Assembly: GCA_964349415.1 (NCBI GenBank)
Contig: CAYGGJ010000001.1
Span: forward strand, 1-53,318
Source: an uncultured Gammaproteobacteria bacterium
GTDB lineage: Bacteria; Patescibacteriota; Microgenomatia; UBA1406; GWC2-37-13
DNA: 53,318 bases
Direction of reading: 5' to 3'
Made by a program: the position numbers and the translations under genes. The notes under the pieces are model-generated. The model did not search any database, was not told where the DNA came from, and worked only from the letters and a program-made list of their open reading frames with translations. Below, one piece after another: positions 84 to 37,548 of this stretch (within the stretch, counting starts at the first letter, position 1; each line of letters starts with the position of its first letter).

Positions 84-1163
84 ATGAGGAAGCATCGACT
101 CCTTCTCGCATTCCTTCTTTTTCTGGCAGGCATTCTATTTGTTTATTTTCAATTCAGACAGGAGAACGTCGCACCCATCCAAAAAAGAGGTGAAGTAAAA
201 CAGAAAGAGGACAGCGAGAAAACCCCAGTTCCGATCACGCAGACCTCGCTTTTTGTACCTTCGTGGACACTTGACGACTCACCACTCCCCGGAAATTACG
301 ACAGATTCATATATTTTGGTGTTACCGGGACGGCCAGTGGCATTGAGATCGAAGACGAGGGGTATCAAAGCCTTGCAAATTTTTTAGAAGCTGTACCTGA
401 GGGTTCAAAGAAACTTCTGACCGTCAAGATGACCAATTCCTCAACAAACCTGGCGGTTTTAAAAAACAAAGAAGCACAAAGGATGATCATCAATGAGTCG
501 ATAAAGATAGCGCGGGATAATAAATTTGACGGTCTGGTTTTGGACTTCGAGCTTTTTAGTCTGTTTAACGAGAGTTCAACTCAGATAAACTCATTTGTGG
601 CTGATTTTTATGGACCTGTCAAGCAAAATAATCTTAGCTTTGCCCTCACTATTTACGGCGATGTTTTCTACCGCAAAAGACCGTACGATCTGGACTTTTT
701 GGGGAAAAACAGCGATGAGATTATGATCATGGCCTATGATTTTCACAAAAGTATCGGAGAGCCGGGTCCAAATTTTCCATTATCCGGGAAAGAGAAGTAC
801 GGATATGATATGGAAGTAATGTTGGATGACTATACTGCCAAAGTTTCGCCGGAAAAGCTGACCGTATTGTTTGGGATGTATGGATATGATTGGGCTGTTG
901 ATGAGAAGAAGAGGCCTTTGCGACAGGCTACTGCTCTAAGTTTAAATCAGATACGGTCTAAATACCTCGAGACCTGTGGAAAGACTAATTGCGTACCGTT
1001 TCGTGATGAAAAAGCCAAAGAAAACGAGATAAATTACGTAGATGGTGGATCACTCTACCATATTATCTGGTTTGAAGACGAAGAATCTGTCAAAGAAAAA
1101 AGCGAAATTATTAAGCAAAACGGAGTAGGATCGATCGGCTACTGGGCTTCTGGCTACTTCTGA
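84..1163 (+). CDS. Membrane-anchored glycoside hydrolase family 18-like protein (chitinase/YaaH-like fold)
   Basis: N-terminal TM segment (LLLAFLLFLAGILFVYF). FDGLVLDFE matches the GH18 D-G-x-x-x-D-x-E catalytic strand, as in YaaH-type DGVNIDFE. MAYDFH and a C-terminal GYWASGY are typical GH18 strands. Confidence 0.7.
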   Translation: MRKHRLLLAFLLFLAGILFVYFQFRQENVAPIQKRGEVKQKEDSEKTPVPITQTSLFVPSWTLDDSPLPGNYDRFIYFGVTGTASGIEIEDEGYQSLANFLEAVPEGSKKLLTVKMTNSSTNLAVLKNKEAQRMIINESIKIARDNKFDGLVLDFELFSLFNESSTQINSFVADFYGPVKQNNLSFALTIYGDVFYRKRPYDLDFLGKNSDEIMIMAYDFHKSIGEPGPNFPLSGKEKYGYDMEVMLDDYTAKVSPEKLTVLFGMYGYDWAVDEKKRPLRQATALSLNQIRSKYLETCGKTNCVPFRDEKAKENEINYVDGGSLYHIIWFEDEESVKEKSEIIKQNGVGSIGYWASGYF

Positions 1164-3778: not shown

Positions 3779-4132
3779 ATGAATAAACAGGCTGATGAAT
3801 TCCGCCAGTTTATTGAGGTAGAAGTCCTTAAAATCATAAAGAAACTTATTCAGGCAGGTGAAACACCCAAAGAAGAAATTCATGAAATCTCCCAGCTTAC
3901 CCTTGATCTTATAAAGCCCGGCATGACAATAGAAGAGCTTTATTCAAACGCTGTAAAACTCGATGATAAAAATTCGAAACTTGCTCCTCTTGTGCACGTG
4001 ATTATGAATGCATACGAGACCCACTTTGAACACAAAGCAATAGATCAGGTTGCCGGACTTATTAAGTCGGGAAAATATGATGACGCCCAAGACATGGTTA
4101 AAAAAGTTTTAGAGTTTAAAATTTCATCTTAA
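3779..4132 (+). CDS. Hypothetical small helical protein
   Basis: ORF with ATG at 3779. Its stop lies 1 nt before the next gene's ATG (TAATATG), so it is the first gene of a + strand operon ending in the giant gene. Confidence 0.5.
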   Translation: MNKQADEFRQFIEVEVLKIIKKLIQAGETPKEEIHEISQLTLDLIKPGMTIEELYSNAVKLDDKNSKLAPLVHVIMNAYETHFEHKAIDQVAGLIKSGKYDDAQDMVKKVLEFKISS

Positions 4133-4133
4133 T

Positions 4134-5201
4134 ATGGCAGGACCAGCAGCACCCCCGGTAGAAGCCCCGCGACCAACAGCTGAAGCACCTAAAAAGGTAA
4201 AGCCAAAAGAGCCGGCAATTCCTAGAGAAGAAGCGCAGGAAATGATCGATGTGATAGACGAAGCTGTGGAGGTAAGCGAAGCCGGCGACGGTCAAAAACA
4301 AGCGGGAGATGATAGTGAAACTACAGAGGGCAAAGCTAATGACCCGGAAGGAGCAGGAGAAGATAAGGAGCAGGAAAAAGACAGAAGAACAGAGGTTGCC
4401 CGTGAAGGTCTGGGAGAAATTCTTGTATTATCGGGTTCAAGGATTGCAGGCCGTGATAGAGCGGAAAGAGTGAAAGGGAGAAGCGCCCGCGCCGAAAAAA
4501 AAAGGGAGAAAAGAAAAGAAAAAATATTCGCAAAGGGTAACGAAGATGAAGACATGATTCGTCAGCGGGCTGCCGCACAGATAGAAAAAGGAACAACGCC
4601 TCAGGAGATCTGTGACGGCATAGACGTACTCGATGCACTTGATGCTCGTCGATTAAGAGAACTCCAAGAACGTGTGGGCTACATTGAAAAGAACATTCAC
4701 AAGGAGCCTTCCAAAAGCCAACCAACACTTAAAGGAGAGTACGAAGAGATCACGGCAGAGATTGGTCAGAGGCAGGAATTAATGAAAAACCGGAGCGAAG
4801 TAAGAGCCGGGCATGAAAAAAATTCAGGAGAGAAAATTCCCAACAAGATCGACAATACAGTTCACAACATAATAGTAGAGGTTAGGGGGAAAATGAACGA
4901 GAGAGATGCATATCAACCTCCTGAAGGGTGGCAGAACGACCCTCTTTTAGTAGTTGAAGATCTTGCCAATAAGGCCGGTGAACAACCGGTGATCATGGAG
5001 GCGGTTACCGAATCCATACTTTCACGTGTAGGTCACGAAAATGAAAAAATGGTAAAAGATCTTCTGAAACCAGACAAATGGCGCAAAAGAGGAAAGAGTC
5101 TTTTTATGATCTTACTCATCGCAGTGGCCGGGGGATTAGGACTTCAGGCAAAGAACGCATCTAAATCGGTTAAACAGCAAGGCCAGGGACAGATGGGATA
5201 A
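4134..5201 (+). CDS. Highly charged (K/E/R/D-rich) protein with a C-terminal TM anchor, function unknown
   Basis: 355-aa ORF. The C-terminal hydrophobic helix LFMILLIAVAGGLGL follows a basic stretch (tail-anchor-like). The rest is charged low complexity. Confidence 0.55.
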   Translation: MAGPAAPPVEAPRPTAEAPKKVKPKEPAIPREEAQEMIDVIDEAVEVSEAGDGQKQAGDDSETTEGKANDPEGAGEDKEQEKDRRTEVAREGLGEILVLSGSRIAGRDRAERVKGRSARAEKKREKRKEKIFAKGNEDEDMIRQRAAAQIEKGTTPQEICDGIDVLDALDARRLRELQERVGYIEKNIHKEPSKSQPTLKGEYEEITAEIGQRQELMKNRSEVRAGHEKNSGEKIPNKIDNTVHNIIVEVRGKMNERDAYQPPEGWQNDPLLVVEDLANKAGEQPVIMEAVTESILSRVGHENEKMVKDLLKPDKWRKRGKSLFMILLIAVAGGLGLQAKNASKSVKQQGQGQMG

Positions 5202-5256: not shown

Positions 5257-5619
5257 ATGGCAGACGCTCTTATACCCGATGAAGTCAAAACTTATATAGA
5301 AGGGCTACTTACAGATGCCGGAATGACAGCTCTTGACGACACCATGAAAGATGAGATGGTTAAAGAACTTTTTGTAAGAGTTGATAACTATCTCGCATCG
5401 GTACTGGTCCAACAACTCCCACAGGAGAATCTTGAGGTATTTATCAAAATGAACGAAGAAAATAAATCCCGTGAAGAAATAGAATCTTTCTTAAAGGAAA
5501 AAATTCCAAATGTTCAGGATGTATTTACCAAAGCCTTTGCAGACTTTCGCACAATGTATTTGGGTAATGTAGCGGTAGCACGTTCTACAGAACCTCAAAA
5601 GGAAGCGGAAAAAAATTAA
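5257..5619 (+). CDS. Hypothetical small acidic helical protein
   Basis: 120-aa ORF in the same operon, ending 18 nt before the giant gene start. Confidence 0.5.
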   Translation: MADALIPDEVKTYIEGLLTDAGMTALDDTMKDEMVKELFVRVDNYLASVLVQQLPQENLEVFIKMNEENKSREEIESFLKEKIPNVQDVFTKAFADFRTMYLGNVAVARSTEPQKEAEKN

Positions 5620-5637: not shown

Positions 5638-8600
5638 ATGCCTGGTGATCCAAGAATAGAAGATGCGAGAAAACACGAGGTAAGGGAAAAACCTTCGCGC
5701 GAACAAGTACTTCAAACCTTCAACGATACTCTCGGTCAGATGAAAGACGCTCCGGATCTTTTGCCGAATGAAAAAAGAGAGCTTGAGCGTATAGAAAAAT
5801 TTGTCGAGCGGACGCTCGATCATCCAAAAGGCTCTCGCCTTAGTGTAGAAAGAACATACCGGCATCCTGACAATCCCGACTGGAGGCTCCGTACTAACGA
5901 AGGGATCCCGGTAGACGGGATGATCGACTACCTAACGCGGGTAATAGATTCAGACGATGTACCAAAAAAGAAAAAGGAAGAGCTTATAAAACAGCGCGCA
6001 GTCCTTGCGAAAAACAGCGTTGACTACCGTCGGGGAAAAAGAGCTGAACCTGCCAACTGGCTGCTGGTCGTAAAAGCATATGCTAAAGAAGAGGGGATCG
6101 ATGATCTCGAAGTAGCAAACGGAGAATTACTGCTCCGACTAGAGCTTTCACTTCCTCCTACCAAAGAGGAGATGGACATTTTAAGAGACACAGGAAGTCT
6201 TGACGAAGCACGTTTTTCTGCAGGAATTGGTATAGACAAACTTCCACCTGCTCCTACCGGAGAAGAACCCACCGACCCTTCGACGCCACCTGCCGAACCA
6301 ACACCTCCGGGAGATTCTCCCGACAGACCCCCACCTGCACCGGAACCGACTCCTCGTGAACCAGTGCCGCCAACCATAGATGATATAAGGGCCGATCAGT
6401 TAAGCGTTATGATCGGTGCGGGAGACGTATCGCTTGAGACCCTTGCAAGACATAAAGCAGAGGTAGAGCTGGAAGACAGAATCCAGCCCGACAAGAGGTT
6501 CTTCAAACGAGTTTGGTATCGCTGGACCAGGGAATTTTATGTTCAAAAATGGACCAAGCAGGCCCTTGAGGCAATGAGGGCAAGTGGTACATCTGCGGTC
6601 TCTTTGAGTTTTGGAAGAAAGGCAGCCGAGGTTCTTTCTACACAGACCGGGGCAATGGAGGCGACGGTAAAGAGCATCAAGGAAAGACTGGAGCTTGGGA
6701 GCATGGGTAAAAGATTCGATGAAAAGGTTACGGAAGCCGAAGGTTTATTGAGACAGGATATTCTCGACAGTATCATCAACCCTGTTGTTGGAGGAGAACG
6801 ACTTACTAAAGAAGAGGTCCAAAAGCGCCTTAGTGAGATTATGACTATTCACAAAGATGAGCCTGCTGTCAGAGAGGTCTTCGGATCGGACGAAGCAATA
6901 TACGGAAAGCTTTCGGAGTTTTATGCCACAGATATTTTAGAGATGGCCAATCTTCTGAGAACACACGAGAAGTCGCTCGAATGGATTGATGAGCATGTAA
7001 AGGTGAAGATGACCAACATGGGGTGGGCAGGAGGAAAAGAAACAGGCGACAAGCTAAGTTGGACAGACAGATTAATACGTCGTGGTCAGAAAAGCAGGAT
7101 TCTTGCTCCCATATTGAGTCCTACCGTAGTCGGAGCCCTTACTTCGATCGGTACTGCTCTTGCGCTTCGAGCTCCTGCGAAAGCACTTTCTGTAGCAGGT
7201 CACATTGCAGTTCCTGGTGCGGGTATGATATCGGGTGGATTCCTTGCAGCATGGAGAAGGAATTTTGAACTAAAGGTCGATAGAAGATTGCAAAGCGAGC
7301 AAAGAAAATACGGTGCAGAAATACCTATTGATGCGAAAAGAAGAATGCGGATGGAAAGTTTTGCCTATGACACTGTAACTGCGGAAAGTTTGCTAAACGG
7401 CTATGTTGACAGGGACGGAGTACATCAGCCGGGGATCCGTCAACTACGAGGTGGATTGGAAACAGAAGAAGGTAGAGAGTCGCTCGTCAAAAAAATAATC
7501 GAAATAGAGGAGCGCATAGATTATTCACTGCGGGAACAAAAAGGCCTCATACGGTACAGTTCTGAGACCTCAGTTGCCCAGGAGCAAACCGCCCTTCTCA
7601 AAGAGTGCGTAGAAATGCGACAGGCACTTAGAGAGGTGGGATTTTCCGATGAGAGAATCAATCTCGTAGCAGAAAGACAGAGAGCTTCTTTTAATCAAAA
7701 CATACAGGAAAGCGACGCTGCGTTTGGAAGGTACCGGCTAAAAGAGTCGCTTAAATCAGGAGGAATAGGTGCAGTTGCCGGTCTTGCGGCAGGGGTTGTT
7801 GGTCATGAACTATGGACAGAAGGTTTGCACTGGGCAGGTGTAGGCGGTGGATCTTATGCTAGGGAAGTAGTAGGAGGAGGTGGGGGGAAGATTAACCCGG
7901 ATACACTTCACGATCTATATGCAAAAGGCGGCAGTCTGCCACTGGAGAATAATTTAGAGATTCGAGTTAATCCTGCCAATCACCACGTATTGCTTATTGA
8001 TTCTACATCAGGAAAACCAGTATCGGTAGATGCGGTCTTTGATCTTCAGAAAAACGGACATATTTACGTTGAAGGAAAACTTCCTGATGAGCTGCAGGAT
8101 CAATTACAAGAGGCAGGACTTAGGGTAAATGAAGGCCCGAAGATAGACGGAGTTAAAATAGTCGAAGAGCCCGGCAGGGGCATGAATGAAGTGGTAGGTC
8201 ACAAAACTTCGATTCCAAAGGGAACGGAATGGATACAGAACCCAAATGATCCGACAAAATGGGATCTTGTGGAAAAAGGACATCCTAAAAACGTATATTT
8301 GAACGATGCTCAGTTTGATGGAGCCGGAAGACTGACGAGTTATGATGTTGCCGGTTCATCTGCAAAAGTAGAACTTGCGGAAGTTGTTACGAAAAGAGAA
8401 ATAGCGGTAGGTGAAGTCGCAGCTGCAGAGCTTGATAAGTATGGTACTAATGTAGGACATAGAGAGTGGTATGGATACAATACTCCTTACTCAGAAAGAA
8501 ACGAATTAACCGCATACAATGCAATATTTGATTCGGCAAATGGTCAAAAAGGAGTGGTGTGGGATATGAGTCATATGCAACTCGGATATCAAGACGGTTT

Positions 8601-11600
8601 AAATCCCAATCCTATTGATGTACAACAGGTGATACGGGACGGACAGGCTGGTTTTGCATTCAGCATTCCGGGACATGAAGGGACTCCGGTCTGGGTGCCG
8701 GATGGAGCAGATGGTGTCTTCGACGGAAGAGTGATTCTTGACCCATCCGACATGACCCACAAAATAAATCCTTTTGATCCAAATAGTATTACAATCGGTG
8801 AACTTTCTCAAAAAATACTCAATCAAAACGCCTTGCAACAGGCAGTGGATGGAAACATTGCTGCAGGACGTGATGCCGGATATCTTGCATCCGAGCTCAC
8901 ACAAAGACAAAATGTTTTCAATCTTGGCTTAAACGGTAAGATGGGTTACATTGAGGCGGGTAGAATGCTTCCAGGTGAGAACGGAAATGTATTTCAAGTT
9001 TTTGCGACAGGACGTGGATCAACCGACGTGCAGTTTGACATCATAAAGGAAGTGCAAACTACGGTCAATCTTACACGTGAAGTACCTATTAAAATCCCGA
9101 CGTACGATCTAACTCCTTTTGACAGAGAAATTTTCCCAATCATTCCTTTTCCATTTGCACCACGTTACCCCTTGGAAAGACTTGGTCCCACAATTATCAC
9201 TCCGGCCCCATTCCCATACTACAGCGGCTACACGAAGCAACAACTAAGGGATTGGTTGCAAGAAGACCCTCGTCGGCACCAGCCGGTAAGAAAAATAAAA
9301 GTAAAAGACGCCGCAGGGAAAGAACGGGAAGTATGGGTAGATGTAGAAGGGAAGCCGTTAGACAGAAGAGTGGAGAGAGAAAGGGAAGTCGTGAGTACCT
9401 ATCTCGACTCGATCCGAACATCAGATCCTACCTATTACGCAGAGTTGGAAAGACTTGCAGCCGAGCCAACCATGCCGGCAATGGGCGACGACACCAGAGT
9501 GGTCATAAACATTCCCGCATGGATGGAGGGAAAAGGAATATATAAAGCGCTTGATGAATATTCCCGTCAGCTGGATAAAGACGGAAACCCGCTCAGCACA
9601 GATCTTTACGAAATAAATATATTAGTAAATAGAAAGACAGGAAGCGCTCCTGACGAAACCCTATCAGAAATACAGAGATTTATAGCTGATGCTCGGGCGA
9701 AAGGTTTGAATCCAAGAATCAACTTTTTAGATGTAGAATTTGACCCCCCTCTTAATGTAGTTGGAAATGCAAGAAAGGTTATGACCGACCTTTCTCTTAT
9801 TCGATCCCTAAGAAGACCAACGCAAGAAAAAGCATTATATATCGAATCTGAGGATGCTGACCTGGTCCACGTTGATCAAAAAACCGTAATCAATATTATT
9901 GACAAGATGGACAATAATCCACACCTAGACGCAGTACGCGGAGTACAAGATCGTTTCCCTGAAGAGATGATGGAAAATGACCTTGTCTTTTTAGCAAGAA
10001 GAATGCAGGACTTCTCGGAGCTTTTTATGAGGAGAAAAAAACTGCGGCCTGAAAATAATCCTGACTCGAACTTTCAGTGGCACCGTGTAATAACAGGCGG
10101 TTGGAATACTGCTTATTCGGCAGAGGCGTATGCTTTAGTCGGAGGATATGATCGGGGTAAAGAAATGGGGGAAGACCTTTTAATTGGAGAAAAATTATCA
10201 ATGATTCGTGGAGATGGGGTAGAACCGAATCTCGATGTAATAGGAAGAGTTCATACAAGGACAGACTCGTCTCCTAGAAGATTCATCGGAGAGGTTATGA
10301 CAGGCGAGAATGCATATTCAAAGACCTTCACAGACGAAGAATTGAATAGAATTATTAAAACGACGCCCATTTCAGAATTAATGGAGATGATCTCTCCATT
10401 TGCCCGGCTCAGCGGATCTAACTGGCATGAATTCCAACGGATAATGGACGCCCATTACAGATGGGTATCGAGTCTTTCTTCAGATAAAGAAATAGGAAAG
10501 GAAGTTTTCGCAGATGTAATGGGATGGCTTGGTTTCAAAAAAGACGATTTTGCATTTACTCAAGCTGCTGACGGAGAACACTTGGCCGTTACCAACTGGG
10601 AAAATGTAAAAGATGCGCTTGAAGACTATAGAACAAGACATACGCGTCCAAGGAAGCGCGGAGAAAGAACAAGGCACGAAAGATTAGCTGAAGCACCTGC
10701 TACGGTACCGACTCCTCCCGTTGATGAACCAGAACCTAAGGCTCCGGAAGTGCCGGAAGGAAAGATTGAATTCCATGAGTTTTACAAGAAAAACAAATTA
10801 GATCTAAGCTCGGTTACACTACCCGACCACTCGCTTGATGAATTAAAGACGAGCAAAGATACTTTTGAGGTAGGTAATTATGTAATAACTAAAGATAAGA
10901 TAGCAGGTAAAGGAGAGTCGGGTAAAGAAGTGCTTTTGGGATATGATAAAACCACGGGTAAAATGTTCGCATTCAAGCAAGTAGACAAAGAAGAGCAGTT
11001 AAAGTTAGCCGATGATCTCAACTATCCCGAAGGAATAAAAGATCCGGAGGATGTGATAAAAGCTGAAGTTGGAGACAACTCATTACTTGGCATATATAAG
11101 GAAAAAATAGATCACGGTGACAGTGTTGTTAAAGTCTATGAACTTTCGGCTCTCGATTTAAGAAATCTACTGGCTCAAAAGGGCGGGGCGCTTCCACCGC
11201 AAGAAGCATTGAAAGTCGCCATTGGGGTAACTGATGCTTTAAGACTATCTCATCAAGCCGGAGTCGTCCACACTGATGTAATCGACAACAACATCTTAAT
11301 AAATGAAGATGGTACGGTTACTCTTACAGATTTTCATGTTGCTGCGATTCAGCCGGAAGGTCAATCTTACACCTTTACCGGATACACTGAAAAATACCAT
11401 GGAATTATGGCCCCGGAATTGCAGGATAAGACCGGAGTAGTTTTTACACCAAGTCTTGATACGTATCAGGCCAGCATCTTGCTCTACCGTACTCTGACAG
11501 GAAAATTTCCATATGGAGGAGGAAGTAGAGCTGAGGTTATGGAAATGCACAAGCAGGGAAAGTTTGAGATTCCTGAGTCAGTCCCTGAGCCAATTCGCAA

Positions 11601-13050
11601 AATACTGCAAAAAGGAATTCAACCCAATCCGGCAGCTCGTTACCAAACGGCAGAGGAGATGTTGAAGGATCTTACCGAAGCATATAATGAGATTACAACA
11701 AAGCCGCCGACACCGGCAGTAAGACCTGCGCCAAAAGCTCCGGAATCAACTCCTCCAAAAGAAACTCCTAAAGTTGTAGATCCGAAGGCTTTCGTTAACT
11801 CTTTAAAACAGGGAGACAGAGTGCTTATACACGGTGATGTTCATATCGTCACACCGCATAAAAACCCAAGCGGAAAGATGATATACCATTTTGAAAGAGA
11901 AGATGGTAAAGCGAAGCGCAATTACGGGGCGGAAGGGGTTGTAGACCGCGTAGCAAGAGGGGAAATTACAGCAGCCGAAGCAAAGGTTGATGTTCCAAAG
12001 CCAAATGCGGAATATGAGGATGGCGCAGACATTGGCGGCTTTACTGCACGCGAAAGAATCCTTCTCCACGTACTTGCAGGAGACAACATTGGAGTAATTA
12101 ATCACTATGTTGTCGAGGGAAATAGAAGGCATATTGATTTTAAAGAGACGGCAGAAGCAGATACAGAAAAAGTCAAGAGAGAATTTGTAAAAGACCCGGT
12201 AAGAGTCCAGAAAAAGGCGGTTGATGTTTTAAGAAATATTATGAGAGACGGAAGACTTTCTGAAGATCAAAAAACTGAAAGAGCGAAAGCATTCACTGTA
12301 TCATTCCTAAAGTTAGTGGTAAAACTTGATAGAGAGGCATTTCCGCCAACACCAGGAGAGACAGTCATGAAAGGAATTCCAGAATATATTCCTGACGGAC
12401 TGACGGATATGGGTTCGGATCCGGAAACCGGAGAATTTAGGTCGGGAAGAGAAAAAGTCAGAATAGATAAACTGGCTTTATTTGAACAATCTACGGATCT
12501 GCTCTATAGAATGATTACTGCTCCTGAAGCAAAAGGAGTTACTCAGGAAGGCAGAGATAAATTCTTCGTCGATAACGTAATGTACTATGTAAATATGGAG
12601 ATGCCGTATTATTTCGGAGAGGGAGGGCTCAATCCCGAGCATTCAATTCCACTTGATTACATAAGAGAGTCGCGTTTGAGTGTATGCCGCCATCACGCCC
12701 TCTACACTCAGGTGTTGCTCCAGACACTAGGCGTTAAGAGCAGACTTTTGAAAACCGATGTGGTATTTGGAAGCGGTAATAGAGGCGCCCATGGAAACAA
12801 TCTCGTAGAAGTCGGTGGGAAATGGTATCTGATTGATACTACTAATCCCGAGAGAATCAAAAAAAATGGAAAAGAGCAGGCAAGACGATTCATCAAGCCT
12901 ATACCGGAAACAACAATTGATACTAGCAATAAAAACTATCACTGGGAGTTCGAGATGGCTAGTGGTCAGAAGCGTGTCTATACGAGCAGAAACAATATGT
13001 ACTATAGAATTAAAGACAACGTAAAAGATCCTGCTTTCGCTGCTGCTTAG
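5638..13050 (+). CDS. Giant (2470 aa) multidomain membrane protein: GT-A-like + Ser/Thr kinase-like + transglutaminase-like domains
   Basis: Uninterrupted 7.4-kb ORF. It has Pro-rich linkers and hydrophobic segments (ILAPILSPTVVGALTSIGTALAL..., GGIGAVAGLAAGVVG). Domain motifs are listed in the three sub-features below. Confidence 0.9.
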   Translation: MPGDPRIEDARKHEVREKPSREQVLQTFNDTLGQMKDAPDLLPNEKRELERIEKFVERTLDHPKGSRLSVERTYRHPDNPDWRLRTNEGIPVDGMIDYLTRVIDSDDVPKKKKEELIKQRAVLAKNSVDYRRGKRAEPANWLLVVKAYAKEEGIDDLEVANGELLLRLELSLPPTKEEMDILRDTGSLDEARFSAGIGIDKLPPAPTGEEPTDPSTPPAEPTPPGDSPDRPPPAPEPTPREPVPPTIDDIRADQLSVMIGAGDVSLETLARHKAEVELEDRIQPDKRFFKRVWYRWTREFYVQKWTKQALEAMRASGTSAVSLSFGRKAAEVLSTQTGAMEATVKSIKERLELGSMGKRFDEKVTEAEGLLRQDILDSIINPVVGGERLTKEEVQKRLSEIMTIHKDEPAVREVFGSDEAIYGKLSEFYATDILEMANLLRTHEKSLEWIDEHVKVKMTNMGWAGGKETGDKLSWTDRLIRRGQKSRILAPILSPTVVGALTSIGTALALRAPAKALSVAGHIAVPGAGMISGGFLAAWRRNFELKVDRRLQSEQRKYGAEIPIDAKRRMRMESFAYDTVTAESLLNGYVDRDGVHQPGIRQLRGGLETEEGRESLVKKIIEIEERIDYSLREQKGLIRYSSETSVAQEQTALLKECVEMRQALREVGFSDERINLVAERQRASFNQNIQESDAAFGRYRLKESLKSGGIGAVAGLAAGVVGHELWTEGLHWAGVGGGSYAREVVGGGGGKINPDTLHDLYAKGGSLPLENNLEIRVNPANHHVLLIDSTSGKPVSVDAVFDLQKNGHIYVEGKLPDELQDQLQEAGLRVNEGPKIDGVKIVEEPGRGMNEVVGHKTSIPKGTEWIQNPNDPTKWDLVEKGHPKNVYLNDAQFDGAGRLTSYDVAGSSAKVELAEVVTKREIAVGEVAAAELDKYGTNVGHREWYGYNTPYSERNELTAYNAIFDSANGQKGVVWDMSHMQLGYQDGLNPNPIDVQQVIRDGQAGFAFSIPGHEGTPVWVPDGADGVFDGRVILDPSDMTHKINPFDPNSITIGELSQKILNQNALQQAVDGNIAAGRDAGYLASELTQRQNVFNLGLNGKMGYIEAGRMLPGENGNVFQVFATGRGSTDVQFDIIKEVQTTVNLTREVPIKIPTYDLTPFDREIFPIIPFPFAPRYPLERLGPTIITPAPFPYYSGYTKQQLRDWLQEDPRRHQPVRKIKVKDAAGKEREVWVDVEGKPLDRRVEREREVVSTYLDSIRTSDPTYYAELERLAAEPTMPAMGDDTRVVINIPAWMEGKGIYKALDEYSRQLDKDGNPLSTDLYEINILVNRKTGSAPDETLSEIQRFIADARAKGLNPRINFLDVEFDPPLNVVGNARKVMTDLSLIRSLRRPTQEKALYIESEDADLVHVDQKTVINIIDKMDNNPHLDAVRGVQDRFPEEMMENDLVFLARRMQDFSELFMRRKKLRPENNPDSNFQWHRVITGGWNTAYSAEAYALVGGYDRGKEMGEDLLIGEKLSMIRGDGVEPNLDVIGRVHTRTDSSPRRFIGEVMTGENAYSKTFTDEELNRIIKTTPISELMEMISPFARLSGSNWHEFQRIMDAHYRWVSSLSSDKEIGKEVFADVMGWLGFKKDDFAFTQAADGEHLAVTNWENVKDALEDYRTRHTRPRKRGERTRHERLAEAPATVPTPPVDEPEPKAPEVPEGKIEFHEFYKKNKLDLSSVTLPDHSLDELKTSKDTFEVGNYVITKDKIAGKGESGKEVLLGYDKTTGKMFAFKQVDKEEQLKLADDLNYPEGIKDPEDVIKAEVGDNSLLGIYKEKIDHGDSVVKVYELSALDLRNLLAQKGGALPPQEALKVAIGVTDALRLSHQAGVVHTDVIDNNILINEDGTVTLTDFHVAAIQPEGQSYTFTGYTEKYHGIMAPELQDKTGVVFTPSLDTYQASILLYRTLTGKFPYGGGSRAEVMEMHKQGKFEIPESVPEPIRKILQKGIQPNPAARYQTAEEMLKDLTEAYNEITTKPPTPAVRPAPKAPESTPPKETPKVVDPKAFVNSLKQGDRVLIHGDVHIVTPHKNPSGKMIYHFEREDGKAKRNYGAEGVVDRVARGEITAAEAKVDVPKPNAEYEDGADIGGFTARERILLHVLAGDNIGVINHYVVEGNRRHIDFKETAEADTEKVKREFVKDPVRVQKKAVDVLRNIMRDGRLSEDQKTERAKAFTVSFLKLVVKLDREAFPPTPGETVMKGIPEYIPDGLTDMGSDPETGEFRSGREKVRIDKLALFEQSTDLLYRMITAPEAKGVTQEGRDKFFVDNVMYYVNMEMPYYFGEGGLNPEHSIPLDYIRESRLSVCRHHALYTQVLLQTLGVKSRLLKTDVVFGSGNRGAHGNNLVEVGGKWYLIDTTNPERIKKNGKEQARRFIKPIPETTIDTSNKNYHWEFEMASGQKRVYTSRNNMYYRIKDNVKDPAFAAA
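9493..10215 (+). other. GT-A (family 2-like) glycosyltransferase domain inside the giant ORF
   Basis: RVVINIPAWMEGKGIY resembles the GT2 N-terminal strand (cf. VSVIIPAYNEE). ESEDADLV provides a DxD-type motif. GGWNTAYSAEAYALVGGYD and GEDLLIGEKL resemble the GT2 acceptor-loop and ED motifs. Confidence 0.6.
10864..11685 (+). other. Hanks-type protein kinase-like domain inside the giant ORF (non-canonical HTD / DFH)
   Basis: GKGESGKEV (Gly loop), MFAFKQV (VAIK Lys), VVHTDVIDNNIL (HRD-like with Asp and Asn kept), LTDFHVA (DFG becomes DFH), IMAPE (APE), SLDTYQASILLY (subdomain IX Asp), AARYQTAEEM (subdomain XI Arg). Confidence 0.7.
12673..12852 (+). other. Transglutaminase-like cysteine protease core at the C-terminus of the giant ORF
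   Basis: SVCRHHALYTQVLLQTLGVKSRLL ... AHGNNLVEVGGKWYLIDTTNPE gives the Cys, His and Asp spacing and context of the transglutaminase-like superfamily (GxC..fa..f..l.R..GiP.R ... HaW.Ev...g.W...D.T). Confidence 0.65.
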
Positions 13051-15080
13051 GCTGCTTCTGCGATAGGAAGAGTAAGCTGATCCATCAATCTTTTTCTTGC
13101 TCCTGCTGAAAGATTTAGATTGTCTATTTGGGCTAAAACCTCTTGAGCCTGAAGATCAGAATACTGACCTTGCACGTATCCTACGGTGAGAGGGTAGAGG
13201 CGGTGCTGTTGATACTGCACTGCTTTTTCATGCTCGTAGTTCATGAGCGCAAAGACGATAGAGGTGAAATAAGGGCGGTCATAGGTAATATTTCCCTCAG
13301 TAGATTTTCTTCTTCCGTCCAACGCTTTTACCAGAGGCATTAAATCCTTTTTCTTAAAATGTGCCTTTACAAACTTTTTAAAGATTTCATTACCCGAAAC
13401 ACCCTGCTCTTGCTGCAGAAGATTTATCAGATTGTAGAGGACAATTCTTTCTTCAGCATATCCTTCAATATCTAAGGGAGAATGGTAAGTTTCCAGAGCC
13501 CATCGTCTTACCAACTCTTCGTCTATAGCTTCATGAAGCCATATTCCACGATGTGTATATTCATAGTTCAGACTCCCGTCAGCATTAATACCGGTAATTC
13601 TGGCTTTTCCAACATCAACTCCGGATCTGCGTGGTGTATTAAGTACGGTCTTACGGTTTCCATGTTCATCGCTCTTGATCACCCGAAGAAATTCCAGCTC
13701 CGATGTTAAATGCGTATATTCATGTGGAAAAATCTCAAGAAGAAGGCGTGATAACAAACCTCTTGCCTGGTCGGGACCAAGGTCGTACCAGCTTCCTTGA
13801 CCAAGTTGTCTTGCCTTTGTTTCGACTACGTCAAAGTTTATAAACAACACAGGCATGGAGGTAAATACAAAAGCATAGGCAGACCCATGCTCCGCAAAAG
13901 CGCGGGCGGTATCACCGGATACAGGATAGATTTTCATACCCGCTATCTTGGGAAGCTTGATCCCATAGGTATGATTGACGAATTCTCGATACTGATCGAT
14001 AACATCATCTCCCAATTGTTTTAACTCGGTTTCTCCCAGACTAAGTTTTTGCAGTTTGGATGTAAGTCCGGCTTTCTCTCTCTGGATTTGCTGCGACAGA
14101 TCGGTAAGATTATGATTCCCAAACTCAGCGGGATGTTTCTTTTTCAGTTCATTGGCGATCCATAGAGGATGAAACATCTGATCTACATTTTCTACAGGCA
14201 TCCTGCGGGGATCTCCCTCTGGTCGGACATAAGTCTTTTTGTAATTATTCGGCAGTTTAAAAGGTCTTGTTAAACGTGGTCTTCCACGCTGTGGTTCTCT
14301 TGGTGTTGGTGGCTCGCGGCGGGCTGGGGGAGCAGGTCTTCTGGGTTCCTGTGGAGCTCTAGGCGTACGCGGCTGTCTGGGAGCTCCCGGTGTCGCAGGA
14401 GTCTTTTGTTTCACGCCATGTTTCCAGATAAACTCCAAAAGCTCAACCTCTTGTTGGCTCAGATTATTTACTTTATCTTTTAGATCCTCCTTATAAAAGG
14501 GGCCACGCTTATTACGGAAAAACGTCTCTGCCAGAGTGAGTTGAGTTACTACTTCGGAAGATCTTCCTCCAAAAATGCCGGCTAGCCACTTAATAGTAGG
14601 CATGTTTTTTTCAAGAACATCTGAACTTTCAGGAACATGAATTAAAAACAGATCTTTTACAAAATGTTTAACCGAATCATTTTTCTTTTCAAAATATCTT
14701 TCATAAAGATTAAGGGCATCCTTTTCACTGAATTTTCTGGAATTGATACCCATCCTTTCAAGCAGTTCGTGTTGATGATCCTCAAATTTTTTTCCTTGGA
14801 AAGAGGCCGTTACTTGTGCCGCCCATGCCTTTTTCTGTTTTTTTAGATCGCCGCTTTCTTTACCTTTCCAGTATTTACTTCTTTCATATCTTGAAGCATT
14901 TTCATAAGGGACGTAATCTCTCCAAGCAAGATGTGTGATTTTATCGGGATTAGGAGCTAAATCTTTTCTTACCGGATTTAGTGCATCTTCGCCTATTAGA
15001 AGTCTCGTTTGCAGACCAATACGGTCGAGGACTGGATGATTTCTCTCCGGGCTTTTGTGAGGCCTAGAACGCTCTGACAT
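13047..15080 (-). CDS. Orphan 677-aa protein with a gluzincin-like HExxH ... WLHEAIDEE motif pair and a Pro/Arg-rich linker
   Basis: FPHEYTHL (HExxH), with GIWLHEAIDEELV downstream (thermolysin-type NEAxSD-like third-ligand motif). The linker is TPATPGAPRQPRTPRAPQEPRRPAPPARREPPTPREPQRGRP. Its stop overlaps the giant gene's stop. Confidence 0.75.
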   Translation of the reverse strand: MSERSRPHKSPERNHPVLDRIGLQTRLLIGEDALNPVRKDLAPNPDKITHLAWRDYVPYENASRYERSKYWKGKESGDLKKQKKAWAAQVTASFQGKKFEDHQHELLERMGINSRKFSEKDALNLYERYFEKKNDSVKHFVKDLFLIHVPESSDVLEKNMPTIKWLAGIFGGRSSEVVTQLTLAETFFRNKRGPFYKEDLKDKVNNLSQQEVELLEFIWKHGVKQKTPATPGAPRQPRTPRAPQEPRRPAPPARREPPTPREPQRGRPRLTRPFKLPNNYKKTYVRPEGDPRRMPVENVDQMFHPLWIANELKKKHPAEFGNHNLTDLSQQIQREKAGLTSKLQKLSLGETELKQLGDDVIDQYREFVNHTYGIKLPKIAGMKIYPVSGDTARAFAEHGSAYAFVFTSMPVLFINFDVVETKARQLGQGSWYDLGPDQARGLLSRLLLEIFPHEYTHLTSELEFLRVIKSDEHGNRKTVLNTPRRSGVDVGKARITGINADGSLNYEYTHRGIWLHEAIDEELVRRWALETYHSPLDIEGYAEERIVLYNLINLLQQEQGVSGNEIFKKFVKAHFKKKDLMPLVKALDGRRKSTEGNITYDRPYFTSIVFALMNYEHEKAVQYQQHRLYPLTVGYVQGQYSDLQAQEVLAQIDNLNLSAGARKRLMDQLTLPIAEAA

Positions 15081-15490: not shown

Positions 15491-17188
15491 ATGGCTAGCA
15501 ACAACACTTCACCAGGCATATTTAAAAGACATAAGGTTTTCGCACTCATCTTCAGCTTTCTCTTCCTCGCAATTCTCGCCGGCTCAGTCGCAGTAGTTCA
15601 ACAACAGCAGACCCTTAATTCTCGGGCAGGCGGTTCTTGGGGTGGCAATCCTGTAGCCGAGTGTTCAGCTGTATGCAAAAAATTGAAAGGTAGAAAAAAC
15701 TGTGAAGCTGTTAAGACGTTAAAAAATCGAAATGCATGTTTGTGGTTAAGTACCCAAAATTCTTGCGTCCCTTTTACAGGTCATTGTAGTGATGATGGAG
15801 GACTCAAACCTTCTTCCGTGCCGACTGGTAAATCTAAAACACCGGCAAAAACAACAAAACCTGACGCTAAAGATTCGGAAACCGGAAGTGGAGAAAAGGG
15901 AAAGGGGATGACATGTACAAAAACGAGTGCCTGTCAGCCAGGATTAAAGTGTATGAATGTATGTCAAGGCCAGAACTGTACGGATAGATGTTGGGATGAT
16001 GTGGCAACTGCCGCCGGTAAATCAGGAGGAGGTCAATCTGCCCCTGATGCTAAATCCGATGGTGGAGGCGCCACCGGTGACGGGAGGAGTGGTGACAATC
16101 TGAAGAGTTGCTCGATTGATTGTTCAAAACTGTCTAAGAATCAATGTAAGAGTCCGAAGAATCGAAACGGCATACCAGTTTGCTACATTACTTCGGGAGG
16201 AGATTGTTGGGCTGACCCACAATTTTTCGATTCTGGACACACTGCCAAATATAAAGCTATAAGTTGTGGAGTAGATTCGGGAAGTGGAGGGGAGACATGT
16301 AATGTAGACTGTGGAAAATTTAACAAAGACAATTGTTCCAAAACAAAAGACACTAACGGAAAATCTGTTTGTTATGTGACGAGCGCCGGTAACTGTTTTG
16401 CAGATACTACGTACTGGTCCGGAAATGGACACACGGCCAAATATCAGTGTAAAGAAGCACCAGTTGCAAAAGCACCCGACCCCGCAGCACCGGCACCCGA
16501 CCCCGCAGCACCGGCTGCCAAAGATTCTGGTAGCGGAGGTGCAAGTGGTGGAGGAGGAACAACATCCGGAGGAGGAACCGGAGGTAGTGCTCCTGCTGCA
16601 GCGCCAGATGCAAAAGCCCCAACAACAGCACCAGCAGCTCCCGGAGCGAGTACCGGAAGCGTCACGCTCAAGCTCTATCTTAAATTTCAGGGTATAACCA
16701 AAAAGCCAACTAACACGACTCCGTTGAAAGTAAAAGTGAGCCTTTCCTCAAGCGTTTCACAGACTGCAGATTTCACCTCAGATGAAAACGGAGGATTTAC
16801 CGGTTCAGTTACATTCTCAAAAGTCGATTTAAGCAAAAAATACTCTATTTATGTCAAAGGACCAAAGCATATCCAGAAACGTGTCTGTGATGCAACTCCT
16901 ACAGAGACACGAGGGGGGACATATAGTTGTTCTACTGACAATGTCACGCTTAAAAGCGGAGAAAATGGATTGAATTTCGATAAAATCCTGCTTCTTGCAG
17001 GAGATTTACCCGAGCAAGACGGAGTAGTTGACTCATCCGATGTTTCATTTATTCGCCAAAATCTTACAAGTCAAGATTCGGATGCACTTGCCATTGGAGA
17101 TGTGAATTTGAACGGCATTGTCGACACCCAAGACTATGCACTCGTTATCGCAGCCCTATCAATTAAGACAGACGACGCGATAAAATAA
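15491..17188 (+). CDS. Secreted or anchored protein with three Cys-rich modules, a P/A/G linker, an Ig-like beta domain and a C-terminal dockerin
   Basis: N-terminal hydrophobic signal/anchor. Three related Cys-rich modules: CSAVCKKLKGRKNC..., CSIDCSKLSKNQCKSPKNRNGIPVCYITSGGDCWAD...GHTAKYKAISC and CNVDCGKFNKDNCSKTKDTNGKSVCYVTSAGNCFAD...GHTAKYQCK. The C-terminal duplicated dockerin repeats are GDLPEQDGVVDSSDVSFI and GDVNLNGIVDTQDYALVI. Confidence 0.8.
   Translation: MASNNTSPGIFKRHKVFALIFSFLFLAILAGSVAVVQQQQTLNSRAGGSWGGNPVAECSAVCKKLKGRKNCEAVKTLKNRNACLWLSTQNSCVPFTGHCSDDGGLKPSSVPTGKSKTPAKTTKPDAKDSETGSGEKGKGMTCTKTSACQPGLKCMNVCQGQNCTDRCWDDVATAAGKSGGGQSAPDAKSDGGGATGDGRSGDNLKSCSIDCSKLSKNQCKSPKNRNGIPVCYITSGGDCWADPQFFDSGHTAKYKAISCGVDSGSGGETCNVDCGKFNKDNCSKTKDTNGKSVCYVTSAGNCFADTTYWSGNGHTAKYQCKEAPVAKAPDPAAPAPDPAAPAAKDSGSGGASGGGGTTSGGGTGGSAPAAAPDAKAPTTAPAAPGASTGSVTLKLYLKFQGITKKPTNTTPLKVKVSLSSSVSQTADFTSDENGGFTGSVTFSKVDLSKKYSIYVKGPKHIQKRVCDATPTETRGGTYSCSTDNVTLKSGENGLNFDKILLLAGDLPEQDGVVDSSDVSFIRQNLTSQDSDALAIGDVNLNGIVDTQDYALVIAALSIKTDDAIK
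16472..16513 (+). repeat. Perfect 21-bp tandem duplication (gcacccgaccccgcagcaccg x2) encoding APDPAAP x2
   Basis: Read directly: 16472-16492 is identical to 16493-16513. It is in frame within the linker of the dockerin protein. Confidence 0.95.
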
Positions 17189-35362: not shown

Positions 35363-37525
35363 TTAAACCTTCCTTCCGTATTTTTCTTTTGAAAGCTGCA
35401 TTATCTTATCCTTGTTCTCGTTTTTAAGCTTAGGAAGGGGAAGTGTTTTGGCAGGAAATGGCGCAGAGGTCATGTCGTCAATCGAAAGCTTCAGGACAAT
35501 CTCATATTTACCTAAAGAGACGAGATCATTTTCAGAGTAAATCTCGGCAAATTCCTTTGTAAGAATCTCGGCATCGCGTGCTCCAACCACAAATGATATG
35601 AGTGTTCCGACATTGCCAAAGATAGCCATCTGGACTTCCTCATCAAGCTGTTCAATGTATTGATTGGCCAAGGTAAGACAGAGACGGTATTTTCTCGCCT
35701 CAGAAAGAATCTTGATAAATGAGGTAGTGGCAAAGTTTTGAAACTCATCGACATAGAGAAAAAAGTCTCGTCGCTCATCCTCTTTTTGATAGGAGCGGTT
35801 CATCGCAGCAAGCTGAATCTGCGTGATTATCATCGCACCAAGAAGGGCCGCATTGTCTTCGCCGAGCTTACCCTGCGAGAGATTCAGGATCAATATCTTC
35901 CCGTCATTCATGATCTTTTCAAGGTCAACCGAAGACTTGGATTTTCCGATGATGTTTCGTATCATTTTTGAGGATACAAACTGTCCGACCTTGTTTTGAA
36001 TAGGGGACACAGCCTCGGCTCTCAGCTTATCAGACATTTTTTCAAACTCCTTTTCCCAAAAGTTTTTTATGACAGGATCGGTGACATGTTCGGTTACTAC
36101 CTTTTTGCGGTATTCTGCATCAGAAAGAAGCTTGAGAACGTCTACAAGAGTCGCATCCGGTACCTCAAGAAGCGCTAAAATAACGTTTCTTAAAATATAC
36201 TCAAGTCTCGGACCCCAGCTGTCGCCGTAGATTTTGTAGAAAATAGATACAATTCCTGAGGCTACTAGATCCTTATGCTGCTTATTCCTGACTTCAAGAA
36301 TGTTAAGTGAAAATGGCCTTTCAGTGTCAAAGGGCTCAAGATAGACCACGTCTTTCATCCTGCGTTTGGGAATGTAATCTAAGATTGTCGAGGACAGATC
36401 TCCGTGAGGGTCAATTATAGCTACTCCACGGCCACGGCGGATATCATCTATGGCCATATTGGCCACAAGGGTTGATTTTCCGGCTCCGGTTTTACCCACA
36501 ATGTATACATGCTTTCTCCGGTCAGGTGTTTTGACACCCATAACAGACTCTTTATTTTTAAACTCGGTTTGAGCAAAGAAATTGACATCATCCTTTTCTT
36601 TATCGGTGAAATCCTGGGCTACCGGAATATTCTCTGGAGGCTCTCCTGACAATGTCTTTCCCCATGCTATGTTTCTGATTCCTGAGAGTAAAAAGCCCGG
36701 TGGATGCCAGAGCGTGGCAAGCTCCTGAGCGTTTAGAATCTGTCTCTCCCGTTCAAAAAAATAGGACGATCTTTTCTTCACTCGTTCAAGAAAGTTTTTC
36801 TTAAAAAGACGCTTTTTTTTGAAAACCAGTTGATTTCCTTCACCGAGCGAAAAGTTTCCGAAGGTGCCTGCAAGATTGCGCAAGTAGGACATAGTGGGTT
36901 TGGTGTCAGAGGTCGTAATGATGCGGATAAGACTTCGTCCTCCTTGAAATGCAGCCTTCTTCATAACCGTCATCTTCTGAGGGTTTAGGCCGTATTTGTC
37001 GGCTGTCGCATCATAGGCCATTTTCTTTGCTGCTTCCACTGCTTGATCCTGCCAAGCAAAAGTTGCAGGATCCACGAGAATCTGGATCGCCATCTTGATA
37101 TCAGCCGGCTGTTTTGATAAAAACCCGATCAGTGACGAAAGAGGATCAATATCCTTAAAATCAAAATATGTCTTTATGGGAAAATAAGAGTAGGAGTTTA
37201 GAACGAGCTCACCCTCAGAGACATGCTTGGACTTTAAGATGATATTCATCGGATCCGTTGTTTTTTTCAACAGGGATTGTGGATATGATGATGTTACAAG
37301 GCTTTGAACAAAGGTATCGGATTCGGAAGGCGCGGTAATATAAAAATAAATAGTTTGGTTAATAAGGTAGAGCTCAAATGAATAGGTTTTAGGCTTTAAA
37401 AGAGGTCTTTTCCACAGTGGAATATAGGGGTAGGAGAGAAGCGAGGCAAATATTTGGGTGGCTGATTCTATTGGGGTTTCGCTGTCTTTAGGATTTCGAA
37501 TCTGAAAGTGTGAGAGATTCTTCAT
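35363..37525 (-). CDS. VirD4/TraD/TraG-like P-loop NTPase (type IV coupling-protein-like)
   Basis: HVYIVGKTGAGKSTLVANM (Walker A), AIIDPHGDL, FFLYVDEFQNF (Walker B) and ARKYRLCLTLANQYIEQL (TraG/TraD C-terminal block ..R..g..l.l..Q...Ql). Confidence 0.75.
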   Translation of the reverse strand: MKNLSHFQIRNPKDSETPIESATQIFASLLSYPYIPLWKRPLLKPKTYSFELYLINQTIYFYITAPSESDTFVQSLVTSSYPQSLLKKTTDPMNIILKSKHVSEGELVLNSYSYFPIKTYFDFKDIDPLSSLIGFLSKQPADIKMAIQILVDPATFAWQDQAVEAAKKMAYDATADKYGLNPQKMTVMKKAAFQGGRSLIRIITTSDTKPTMSYLRNLAGTFGNFSLGEGNQLVFKKKRLFKKNFLERVKKRSSYFFERERQILNAQELATLWHPPGFLLSGIRNIAWGKTLSGEPPENIPVAQDFTDKEKDDVNFFAQTEFKNKESVMGVKTPDRRKHVYIVGKTGAGKSTLVANMAIDDIRRGRGVAIIDPHGDLSSTILDYIPKRRMKDVVYLEPFDTERPFSLNILEVRNKQHKDLVASGIVSIFYKIYGDSWGPRLEYILRNVILALLEVPDATLVDVLKLLSDAEYRKKVVTEHVTDPVIKNFWEKEFEKMSDKLRAEAVSPIQNKVGQFVSSKMIRNIIGKSKSSVDLEKIMNDGKILILNLSQGKLGEDNAALLGAMIITQIQLAAMNRSYQKEDERRDFFLYVDEFQNFATTSFIKILSEARKYRLCLTLANQYIEQLDEEVQMAIFGNVGTLISFVVGARDAEILTKEFAEIYSENDLVSLGKYEIVLKLSIDDMTSAPFPAKTLPLPKLKNENKDKIMQLSKEKYGRKV

Positions 37526-37548
37526 ATAAAAAGTATACTGATAATTAA

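Follow-up and report, generated by a model that had tools for sequence, protein, structure and literature searches.

The giant gene and its scaffold family

The window analyzed here, that is, the whole stretch of 53,318 nucleotides (nt) spanning positions 1 to 53,318 of contig CAYGGJ010000001.1 (GenBank assembly GCA_964349415.1), contains a giant gene for a protein of 2470 amino acids (aa), in which a long N-terminal scaffold is followed by three predicted enzyme modules: a GT-A glycosyltransferase (GT), a Hanks-type protein kinase and a transglutaminase-like module. A small DUF5663 gene ends 18 nt before it. Judged by its homologs, the giant protein is no isolated oddity but represents one of the variants within a large Patescibacteria family built on this scaffold. 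Its open reading frame (ORF) is uninterrupted, as the preliminary description of this DNA had stated, and every motif named in that description could be located in the translation; the start codon is correct, since the alignments of relatives begin at residue 2-20. The giant gene, its modules and its partner gene are arranged as follows:

5638..13050 (+): giant ORF, 2470 aa, ATG start, uninterrupted (ORF call and translation)
5638..6387 (+): N1 region (aa 1-200) and Pro-rich linker (aa 201-250)
6388..7833 (+): all-helical scaffold core, aa 251-732, holding hydrophobic Gly/Ala-rich helices (AlphaFold model helical throughout)
7093..7251 (+): hydrophobic hairpin, aa 486-538 (segments 486-514 and 517-538), with Arg/Lys flanks (…RRGQKSR… and …WRRN…)
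7747..7803 (+): third hydrophobic helix, glycine-zipper-like, aa 704-722 (GGIGAVAGLAAGVVG)
7897..9117 (+): beta-rich middle domains M1/M2, aa ~754-1160 (model pLDDT 85-95)
9145..9177 (+): conserved PFPFAPRYPLE junction motif, ahead of the cargo region
9238..10707 (+): GT-A (GT2-like) module of ~480 aa, about aa 1201-1690/1700
10891..11667 (+): Hanks-type protein kinase, aa 1752-2010 (Pfam Pkinase)
11728..12027 (+): Pro/Thr-rich linker and small beta-rich connector, aa 2031-2130
12028..13047 (+): transglutaminase-like Cys/His/Asp module, aa ~2131-2470
5257..5619 (+): DUF5663 partner, 120 aa, acidic, helical, with C-terminal FRxxYL (Pfam DUF5663, E 4.7e-6)

A HMMER search with aa 1-1200 recovered 379 clusters (at 50% identity) with E ≤ 1e-3, 116 of them with E ≤ 1e-30; the proteins are almost all 1200-2800 aa long, and relatives align over aa 2-1197 of the window protein at 28-38% identity, with E-values down to 7e-182. 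A homolog search with the whole protein had returned unrelated kinases only, and the false impression of an orphan that it created was overturned by the segment searches. The modules were counted in the representatives of the best 149 of the 379 clusters. The scaffold core is the best-conserved part of the family: aa 481-740, the transmembrane (TM) region, is found in 125 of the 149 representatives and aa 201-480 (N2) in 112, followed by the beta-rich M2 region (97/149) and the N1 region (39/149). The C-terminal enzymes are a different matter; the GT module occurs in 41 of 149, GT plus kinase in six of 149, and members without a window-type GT carry a GT9 domain (7/23), a PP2C/SpoIIE phosphatase, an FkbM methyltransferase, a DUF218 domain, a metallophosphoesterase or a C39-like peptidase. 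Because the scaffold parts are constant and the C-terminal enzymes differ among members, the grammar of the family, as read from the predicted domains, is that of a constant scaffold with a variable slot of cofactor-dependent enzymes.

The order scaffold, GT and kinase is shared by L013 (2249 aa) and P0016, the latter with its N-terminus cut off by the contig end. In P0042 and P0047, a PP2C phosphatase follows the kinase at the place where the window protein has its connector and transglutaminase-like module; P0047 is also the closest kinase relative of the window protein. The preliminary description did not recognize the combination of three enzymes as a known architecture, and the triple was indeed found nowhere else, neither in the homolog searches nor in the 149-member census. 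Literature searches on DUF5663 and on giant GT or kinase proteins of Patescibacteria brought up no description of the scaffold family.

The GT module was traced independently by scanning one genome per GTDB species, which yielded 26 loci, nearly all of them in Patescibacteria (Saccharibacteria, Levy-, Gottesman-, Nomura-, Moran-, Doudna- and Gracilibacteria); the remainder consisted of a few probable mis-binned contigs and one actinomycete, Nonomuraea. At most of these loci the module forms the end of a giant ORF (1250-2530 aa), which also has the counterpart of aa ~200-1200, so that the alignment with the window protein covers aa ~200-1690. The nearest relatives of the giant gene and its partner were found in Levybacteria and Gottesmanbacteria genomes, which makes a Microgenomates-type Patescibacterium the most likely source of the window.

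Apparent "short" family members of ~750 aa were rejected as independent forms, as P0105 resembles a split gene and P0129 ends at a contig edge. In the first case (L031:1619-7358), the ORF of the 748-aa scaffold protein overlaps the next one, which is 1184 aa long and encodes an FkbM methyltransferase domain; a frameshift or a sequencing error has probably divided one giant gene here. Database entries for short proteins of the scaffold family call for caution. An ORF of 2470 aa that looked like a single orphan has thus become the entry point to a family of several hundred sequence clusters, and what is now defined comprises its domain grammar, the small partner linked to it, a new GT-A family that Pfam does not detect, and a lineage of non-RD kinases. 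Most large conserved proteins of the Patescibacteria are unannotated, even though this phylum represents a large share of bacterial diversity.

The DUF5663 partner gene

When all ORFs of the window and of 27 loci were clustered, DUF5663 emerged as the sole widely conserved neighbor of the giant gene; in 17 of 26 related loci, a homolog precedes the giant gene at a distance of 1-31 nt, and in saccharibacterial loci a second DUF5663 copy lies downstream. The DUF5663 relatives are acidic and helical proteins with a conserved terminal FRxxYL motif. Their profile matched the trigger-factor C-terminal domain weakly (E 0.014, statistically insecure), and the structural matches listed for a DUF5663 protein of Southlakia epibionticum include a protein with the trigger-factor C-terminal domain and, from ECOD, a domain of the LTXXQ family (Wang et al., 2023, Table S2; PMC10633639); these two observations make up the likeness to the helical chaperones of the trigger-factor C-terminal and Spy-LTXXQ type. 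The DUF5663 protein is probably a dedicated chaperone or adaptor for the scaffold.

The gene order offers a lead into a genetically tractable organism. In a saccharibacterial locus (L007, 4916-12372), infB is followed by DUF5663, the giant gene, a small gene and the second DUF5663 gene; in Southlakia epibionticum, infB (SEML1_0160) is followed by a 767-aa hypothetical protein (SEML1_0161) and a pair of DUF5663 genes (SEML1_0162 and 0163), with a third DUF5663 entry in Table S2 (Wang et al., 2023; PMC10633639). Transposon sequencing (Tn-seq) classified SEML1_0161 and 0162 as essential, and 0163 as causing a growth defect (Wang et al., 2023, Table S1; PMC10633639). By synteny, SEML1_0161 is a possible candidate for a reduced scaffold member, and SEML1_0161-0163 would make Southlakia epibionticum a candidate relative in which the family could be approached genetically.

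The glycosyltransferase module

The segment aa 1201-1733 had no match in Pfam or in a sequence search of the Protein Data Bank (PDB), and the assignment of the GT module was obtained from its homologs and its predicted structure. The homolog search yielded 26 proteins with 33-54% identity over ~470 residues. The module has the motifs RVVINIPAWMEGKG (aa 1287-1300), EDAD (1405-1408) and GGWNTAYSAEAYALVGGYD (1487-1505), and within or beside them the DxD pair D1406/D1408, GGWN (1487-1490), the ED pair E1512/D1513 and SSPRR (1544-1548); ESEDAD, GGWN, GED (with E1512 and D1513) and SSPRR are near-invariant among the homologs, and D1406 and D1408 are each kept in at least 90% of 27 sequences. The Pfam model Glycos_transf_2 touches just two of 19 GT relatives (E 0.004), and the GT family profile found no glycosyltransferase among PDB sequences.

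The AlphaFold model of the module, built from the 27-sequence alignment, reached a predicted local distance difference test score (pLDDT) of 89.4 and a predicted template modeling score (pTM) of 0.88. Its top 50 Foldseek matches in the PDB were all GT-A/GT2 glycosyltransferases (best E 2.3e-8); they included PcManGT (2e-8), the catalytic domains of hyaluronan, cellulose and chitin synthases, K4CP, TarP and GpgS. In the model, the DxD motif directly follows the fourth strand (residues 201-204 of the modeled segment), and the ED pair opens a helix, as in GT2 enzymes. Given the confident model, structural matches restricted to GT-A/GT2 enzymes and GT2-like motif placement, the module is, by its predicted structure, a GT-A enzyme of a GT2-like family overlooked by current Pfam models; the GT2-like domain proposed from the DNA alone is thus borne out by model, structural matches and conserved DxD and ED residues in a segment to which Pfam is blind.

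The comparison with solved GT2 enzymes (PcManGT, 6yv7; GpgS, TarP, K4CP, hyaluronan and cellulose synthases) shows the same predicted fold (Foldseek probability 1.00), the DxD motif after the fourth strand, a GGW-type acceptor loop and the ED pair at the start of a helix; yet the sequence identity is merely 10-18%. Unlike these enzymes, the window module has N-terminal (~90 aa) and C-terminal (~130 aa) extensions and an invariant SSPRR motif, and members of its family mostly terminate a giant scaffold protein.

Other settings of the GT module also occur. P0013 and P0022, which are 724-846 aa long, begin with TPR repeats and have the GT module after them, an arrangement that recalls protein O-glycosyltransferases and hints at protein substrates. 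In Nonomuraea sp. NPDC050547 (L026:9956-12440), a free-standing GT homolog of 487 aa (31% identity) is part of a sugar-tailoring-type cluster with a DegT aminotransferase, a methyltransferase, SurE, a zinc-dependent alcohol dehydrogenase, an aldo-keto reductase, a xylose-isomerase-like protein and PhyH; the next gene, an APH-family phosphotransferase, has its start overlapping the GT stop. This adjacency means that a GT beside a kinase-fold enzyme recurs outside the Patescibacteria, possibly through transfer between epibiont and host lineages.

The kinase module

The kinase was the only module of the window protein with a strong match of its own to Pfam (Pkinase, PF00069; E 1.8e-24, 87 bits against a cut-off of 31.7, covering profile positions 3-259 of 263), and its nearest solved structures were PknB (E 7.7e-19), PknA and StkP. 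Its motifs comprise GKGESGKEV (1757-1765), FAFK with Lys1780, HTDVIDNN (1878-1885), DFH (1898-1900), APE (1925-1927) and RYQT with R2001; the kinase with HTD in place of HRD and DFH in place of DFG, as recognized in the preliminary description, was thereby confirmed. The window kinase was aligned with eight others on the same scaffold (n=9). The complete scaffold-linked kinases all keep the equivalents of K1780, D1880, N1885, D1898, APE, DTY and the RYQ Arg, and the Gly loop varies. The HRD Arg is absent in 9/9 and the catalytic-loop Lys in 8/9; in the window kinase, a non-RD kinase by its HTD motif, Ile replaces this Lys and His the DFG Gly, a position that is occupied by H, G, N, D or E among the scaffold-linked kinases. 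From the pattern of retained and lost residues, these kinases look like a coherent non-RD lineage, catalytically competent in appearance but atypical.

The membrane-bound Hanks kinases of Gram-positive bacteria and their PP2C partners (PknB/PstP, Stk1/Stp1) provide the closest comparison: the window kinase is nearest to the PknB, PknA and StkP structures, and the presence of kinase and PP2C phosphatase in one membrane-associated protein in P0042 and P0047 is akin to the PknB/PstP pairing. PASTA repeats gave no match in the giant protein; the NCBIfam model PknB_PASTA_kin covers the kinase part alone (102 bits against a cut-off of 450). In contrast to PknB-type kinases, the window kinase has neither PASTA nor other sensor domains, is located ~1000 aa C-terminal to the hydrophobic helices (PknB-type kinases precede a single TM helix), follows a glycosyltransferase in the same polypeptide, and combines the non-RD and DFH states with the loss of the catalytic-loop Lys.

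The connector and the transglutaminase-like module

The connector (aa 2040-2130) had no homolog in the protein set collected in the analysis. The module behind it has the motifs SVCRHHALY (2348-2356), AHGNNLVEV (2384-2392) and LIDTT (2398-2402), and on the window sequence itself the Pfam matches remained below threshold (DUF553, 16.5 bits with a cut-off of 20.5; Transglut_core, 15.5 bits with a cut-off of 23), while the transglutaminase-related NCBIfam model MAG6410 matched with E 3e-6. Searching the PDB by sequence with the C-terminal segment gave no useful match. A search with aa 2031-2470 yielded 48 homologs, nearly all of ~345 aa and free-standing, which align end to end with aa ~2130-2470 and begin near their own Met1. 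At this family level the assignment becomes firm: C2350, H2385 and D2400 are invariant in 29 sequences, 24 of these 29 match DUF553 (best E 1e-9) and 22 match Transglut_core (best E 3e-8), and the family profile matches a solved transglutaminase-like protein (PDB 9crn) with E 3e-6 across the triad. The conclusion that the C-terminal module belongs to the transglutaminase-like superfamily, already proposed from its Cys/His/Asp core, stands on these sequence profiles, even though the window sequence is sub-threshold. The triad is invariant and has the same order and spacing as in the transglutaminase- and papain-like superfamily (PF01841; DUF553, PF04473; 9crn); as a difference from this superfamily, the window module has an N-terminal part of ~200 aa bearing the motif YIPDGLSDMGSD.

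Fusion of this module to other domains was not found elsewhere: none of the 149 scaffold representatives carries it, and all 48 database homologs and 15 metagenome loci are free-standing. Neither scaffold nor GT nor kinase genes lie beside the free-standing genes within up to 8 kb, and the idea that a transglutaminase-like gene is a conserved neighbor of the scaffold family was rejected, as no related locus has such a gene adjacent. One free-standing homolog of 428 aa (L030, GCA_040960315.1) is located amid genes for an Hjc resolvase, an ATP-dependent DNA ligase and a TFIIB-type zinc ribbon; from these archaeal-type genes, the module family may extend to archaea.

The N-terminal scaffold and the membrane question

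The scaffold (aa 1-1200) has no Pfam match. Proline is frequent behind the N1 region (21 Pro in aa 201-300), and the hydrophobic stretches located by a Kyte-Doolittle scan at 486-514, 517-538 and 704-722 agree with those noted earlier near aa 490-540 and 700-720. All three segments are conserved family-wide and are rich in Gly, Ala and Ser. Their summed Hessa values, however, were +3.3 and +6.6, compared to -1.35 for a classical TM helix in a neighboring gene; the segments are marginal, and too weak for a confident assignment as membrane-spanning. In the flanks of the third helix, the net charge across 36 relatives was +1.6 on the N-side and -0.7 on the C-side. The earlier designation as a membrane protein thus holds with respect to the conserved hydrophobic helices and is weakened by their marginal hydrophobicity; from these sequence features, membrane association of the giant protein is plausible. 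The protein has no signal peptide, and its cysteines number only two, C657 and C2350.

The AlphaFold model of aa 251-1200 (pLDDT 74, pTM 0.46) is helical to aa ~732, with a 60-residue helix that ends in the glycine-zipper-like third hydrophobic segment; beyond it, the model bears out the beta-rich middle region that had been noticed in the translation (aa ~754-1160). The PFPFAPRYPLE motif follows, with its P, R and P nearly invariant in the alignment of relatives. Foldseek with the scaffold model found nothing significant in the PDB (best E 0.08) or among the viral models of BFVD (best E 0.019); resemblances of the scaffold to beta-propellers and tape-measure proteins were at noise level and were discarded.

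Possible function of the giant protein

The reading we favor, with a probability of about one-half, is that of a membrane-tethered, cytoplasm-facing platform that modifies envelope glycoconjugates or proteins, and for which we infer the following mechanism. The hydrophobic helices would form a hairpin or re-entrant anchor that holds the protein to the cytoplasmic side of the cell membrane, so that the enzyme array would sit in the cytoplasm of the producing cell, supplied with nucleoside diphosphate (NDP) sugars and ATP. The GT could then glycosylate a membrane-proximal acceptor, either an envelope glycoconjugate precursor or a protein, by means of a DxD-bound metal and the ED base; the kinase could phosphorylate Ser/Thr residues of the same or partner substrates, the thiol enzyme could cleave or remodel an amide bond, and the DUF5663 helper would act as chaperone or adaptor of the scaffold. 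The cytoplasmic location is suggested by the dependence of the cargo enzymes on cytoplasmic cofactors (NDP-sugars, ATP, S-adenosylmethionine, metal ions), by their resemblance to enzymes of glycoconjugate assembly and Ser/Thr signaling and not to toxins, by the missing signal peptide and the missing conserved immunity-like gene downstream, by hydrophobic helices that are weak enough for a hairpin or re-entrant anchor, and by the free-standing occurrence of the GT module in the Nonomuraea sugar-tailoring cluster. If true, this would be a mode, specific to the Candidate Phyla Radiation (CPR), of organizing envelope glycosylation and Ser/Thr signaling on one membrane tether.

As a caveat, several observations weigh against this reading. 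Three spanning helices together with the charge pattern of the third helix would predict that aa 723-2470 are outside, and in that orientation reactions that depend on ATP and NDP-sugars could not take place in the producer. The kinase has lost its catalytic-loop Lys and its DFG Gly, so that its activity appears less than certain; the fusion of the transglutaminase-like module is known from a single contig; the scaffold has no structural relative in the PDB or BFVD; and enzyme roles and localization are predictions for every family member.

The outside orientation would suit a host-directed effector platform, in which the scaffold of an episymbiotic CPR cell inserts into or translocates across a membrane, DUF5663 is a secretion chaperone, and the C-terminal enzymes, exposed on the cell surface, are delivered into the cytoplasm of the host bacterium, where they would glycosylate, phosphorylate, cleave or deamidate host targets. 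GT-A, kinase and papain- or transglutaminase-like domains are classic effector chemistries of pathogens. Cultivated Patescibacteria are obligate epibionts (PMC10633639). The positive-inside pattern of the third helix predicts the required C-out topology, and weakly hydrophobic Gly/Ala-rich helices within an all-helical domain would be comparable to the conditional membrane-insertion domains of toxins. The constant N-terminal region, the variable C-terminal enzyme slot and the small helical gene directly upstream resemble, by analogy, the LXG/Lap toxins of type VII secretion; with the large clostridial glucosylating toxins the giant protein would share a GT-A domain, a cysteine-enzyme domain and a weakly hydrophobic region within one giant polypeptide. 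Yet no sequence or fold similarity to either toxin group was found, and the domain order differs from that in TcdA/TcdB. The census contains no nuclease, deaminase, ADP-ribosyltransferase, lipase or cell-wall hydrolase cargo, and the cargo does not resemble toxins; downstream of the giant gene there is no conserved immunity-like gene, and no paralog of the giant gene is present in the window. Pfam, NCBIfam and PADLOC match only the kinase and transglutaminase-like regions and reveal no recognizable secretion signal or known trafficking domain, the scaffold does not structurally match any translocation domain in the PDB or BFVD, and the GT module also occurs as an ordinary cytoplasmic enzyme in Nonomuraea. 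On balance, an effector platform is unlikely. Its most specific form is less likely still; here the DUF5663-scaffold cassette would be a delivery system specific to Patescibacteria, its helical, glycine-zipper scaffold inserting into a membrane at the contact between epibiont and host and bringing in the glycosyltransferase, the kinase and a thiol protease or deamidase, which would rewire envelope synthesis or signaling of the host, with the swappable slot serving adaptation to different hosts. If true, delivery would give epibionts a new means of manipulating their hosts.

The remaining alternatives concern parts of the protein. The last module might not truly belong to it, if a free-standing gene for a ~345-aa protein had been joined to a scaffold-GT-kinase gene through mis-assembly or through the loss of a stop codon to a sequencing error. 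The end-to-end alignment with free-standing proteins from near their Met1, the uniformly free-standing state of the database and metagenome homologs, none of them adjacent in related loci, the connector of ~90 aa without homologs and the restriction of the giant protein to one contig would fit such an artifact. On the other side, the frame stays open for 440 codons past the kinase, the junction has neither an internal Met nor a start signal, and the convergent downstream gene abuts normally. The GC content at third codon positions (GC3) is uniform at 0.34-0.39 over the domain junctions of the giant ORF, and GC is uniform at the last junction as well, so that the composition gives no hint of a chimeric join; moreover, PP2C as a further enzyme in the same slot of two kinase-bearing relatives indicates that a third module is the norm. 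A mis-join is quite improbable in view of these points. An anti-phage defense kinase system comparable to PD-T4-6, MADS Mad6 or BREX PglW was suggested by PADLOC and NCBIfam defense-kinase models that match aa ~1745-2060 (PD-T4-6, E 1e-36; mad6, E 8e-30); these matches are confined to the generic kinase domain, the NCBIfam models score far short of their curated cut-offs, no other system component is found in the protein or its neighboring genes, and the family is conserved beside housekeeping genes such as infB. With only the kinase domain matched, the defense reading was rejected and has hardly any chance of being correct.

Neighboring genes and other features of the window

The genes that flank the giant gene and its DUF5663 partner are:

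3737/3779..4132 (+): helical protein of ~117-131 aa, upstream gene on the same strand
4134..5201 (+): 355-aa protein, extremely charged (Lys/Glu/Arg-rich), with one C-terminal hydrophobic tail
13047..15080 (-): convergent 677-aa orphan with an HEYTH motif (zinc-protease-like) and a Pro/Arg-rich stretch; 4-nt overlap with the giant gene at the stop codons

The gaps among the upstream same-strand genes are 1-55 nt, and the two further upstream genes (3779..5201, +) are probably co-transcribed with the giant gene. The preliminary proposal of co-transcription with three small proteins agrees with the shared strand and the short gaps, but only the DUF5663 gene proved to be a conserved partner: the 131-aa protein has a homolog in just two loci, and the 355-aa charged protein in none of 26 related loci. 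Convergence on an orphan gene with overlapping stop codons was noted correctly, and the HEYTH motif is present; this 677-aa protein has no Pfam match and no homolog in the 26 related loci. By the absence of homologs at related loci, the 355-aa charged protein and the HExxH gene were both ruled out as partners, and the convergent gene is, on this comparative evidence, considered to be outside the system.

The context of the window is chromosomal; besides the DUF5663 gene it includes genes for Pth, glutaredoxin, a GH18 protein, an M17 peptidase, tRNA-Leu, a TrwB-like coupling protein and many orphans. Near the giant gene, a GH18 chitinase-like protein is encoded at 84-1163 (+), and a 565-aa protein with a C-terminal dockerin domain at 15491-17188 (+); in Southlakia epibionticum, a dockerin-domain protein was reported to be essential (PMC10633639). 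At 35363-41600 (-), a TrwB/VirD4-like type IV coupling protein (720 aa) adjoins ORFs of 969 aa and 395 aa, the former without a Pfam match; this region, ~22 kb from the giant gene, may represent a divergent type IV secretion cluster. Finally, a ~900-bp island at 42500-43450 has a GC content of 60-62%, compared to ~40% for the genome, and no meaningful Rfam match; it coincides with an ORF at 42636-43448 (-) for a cysteine-rich, 270-aa protein with an N-terminal hydrophobic helix, and looks like foreign DNA.

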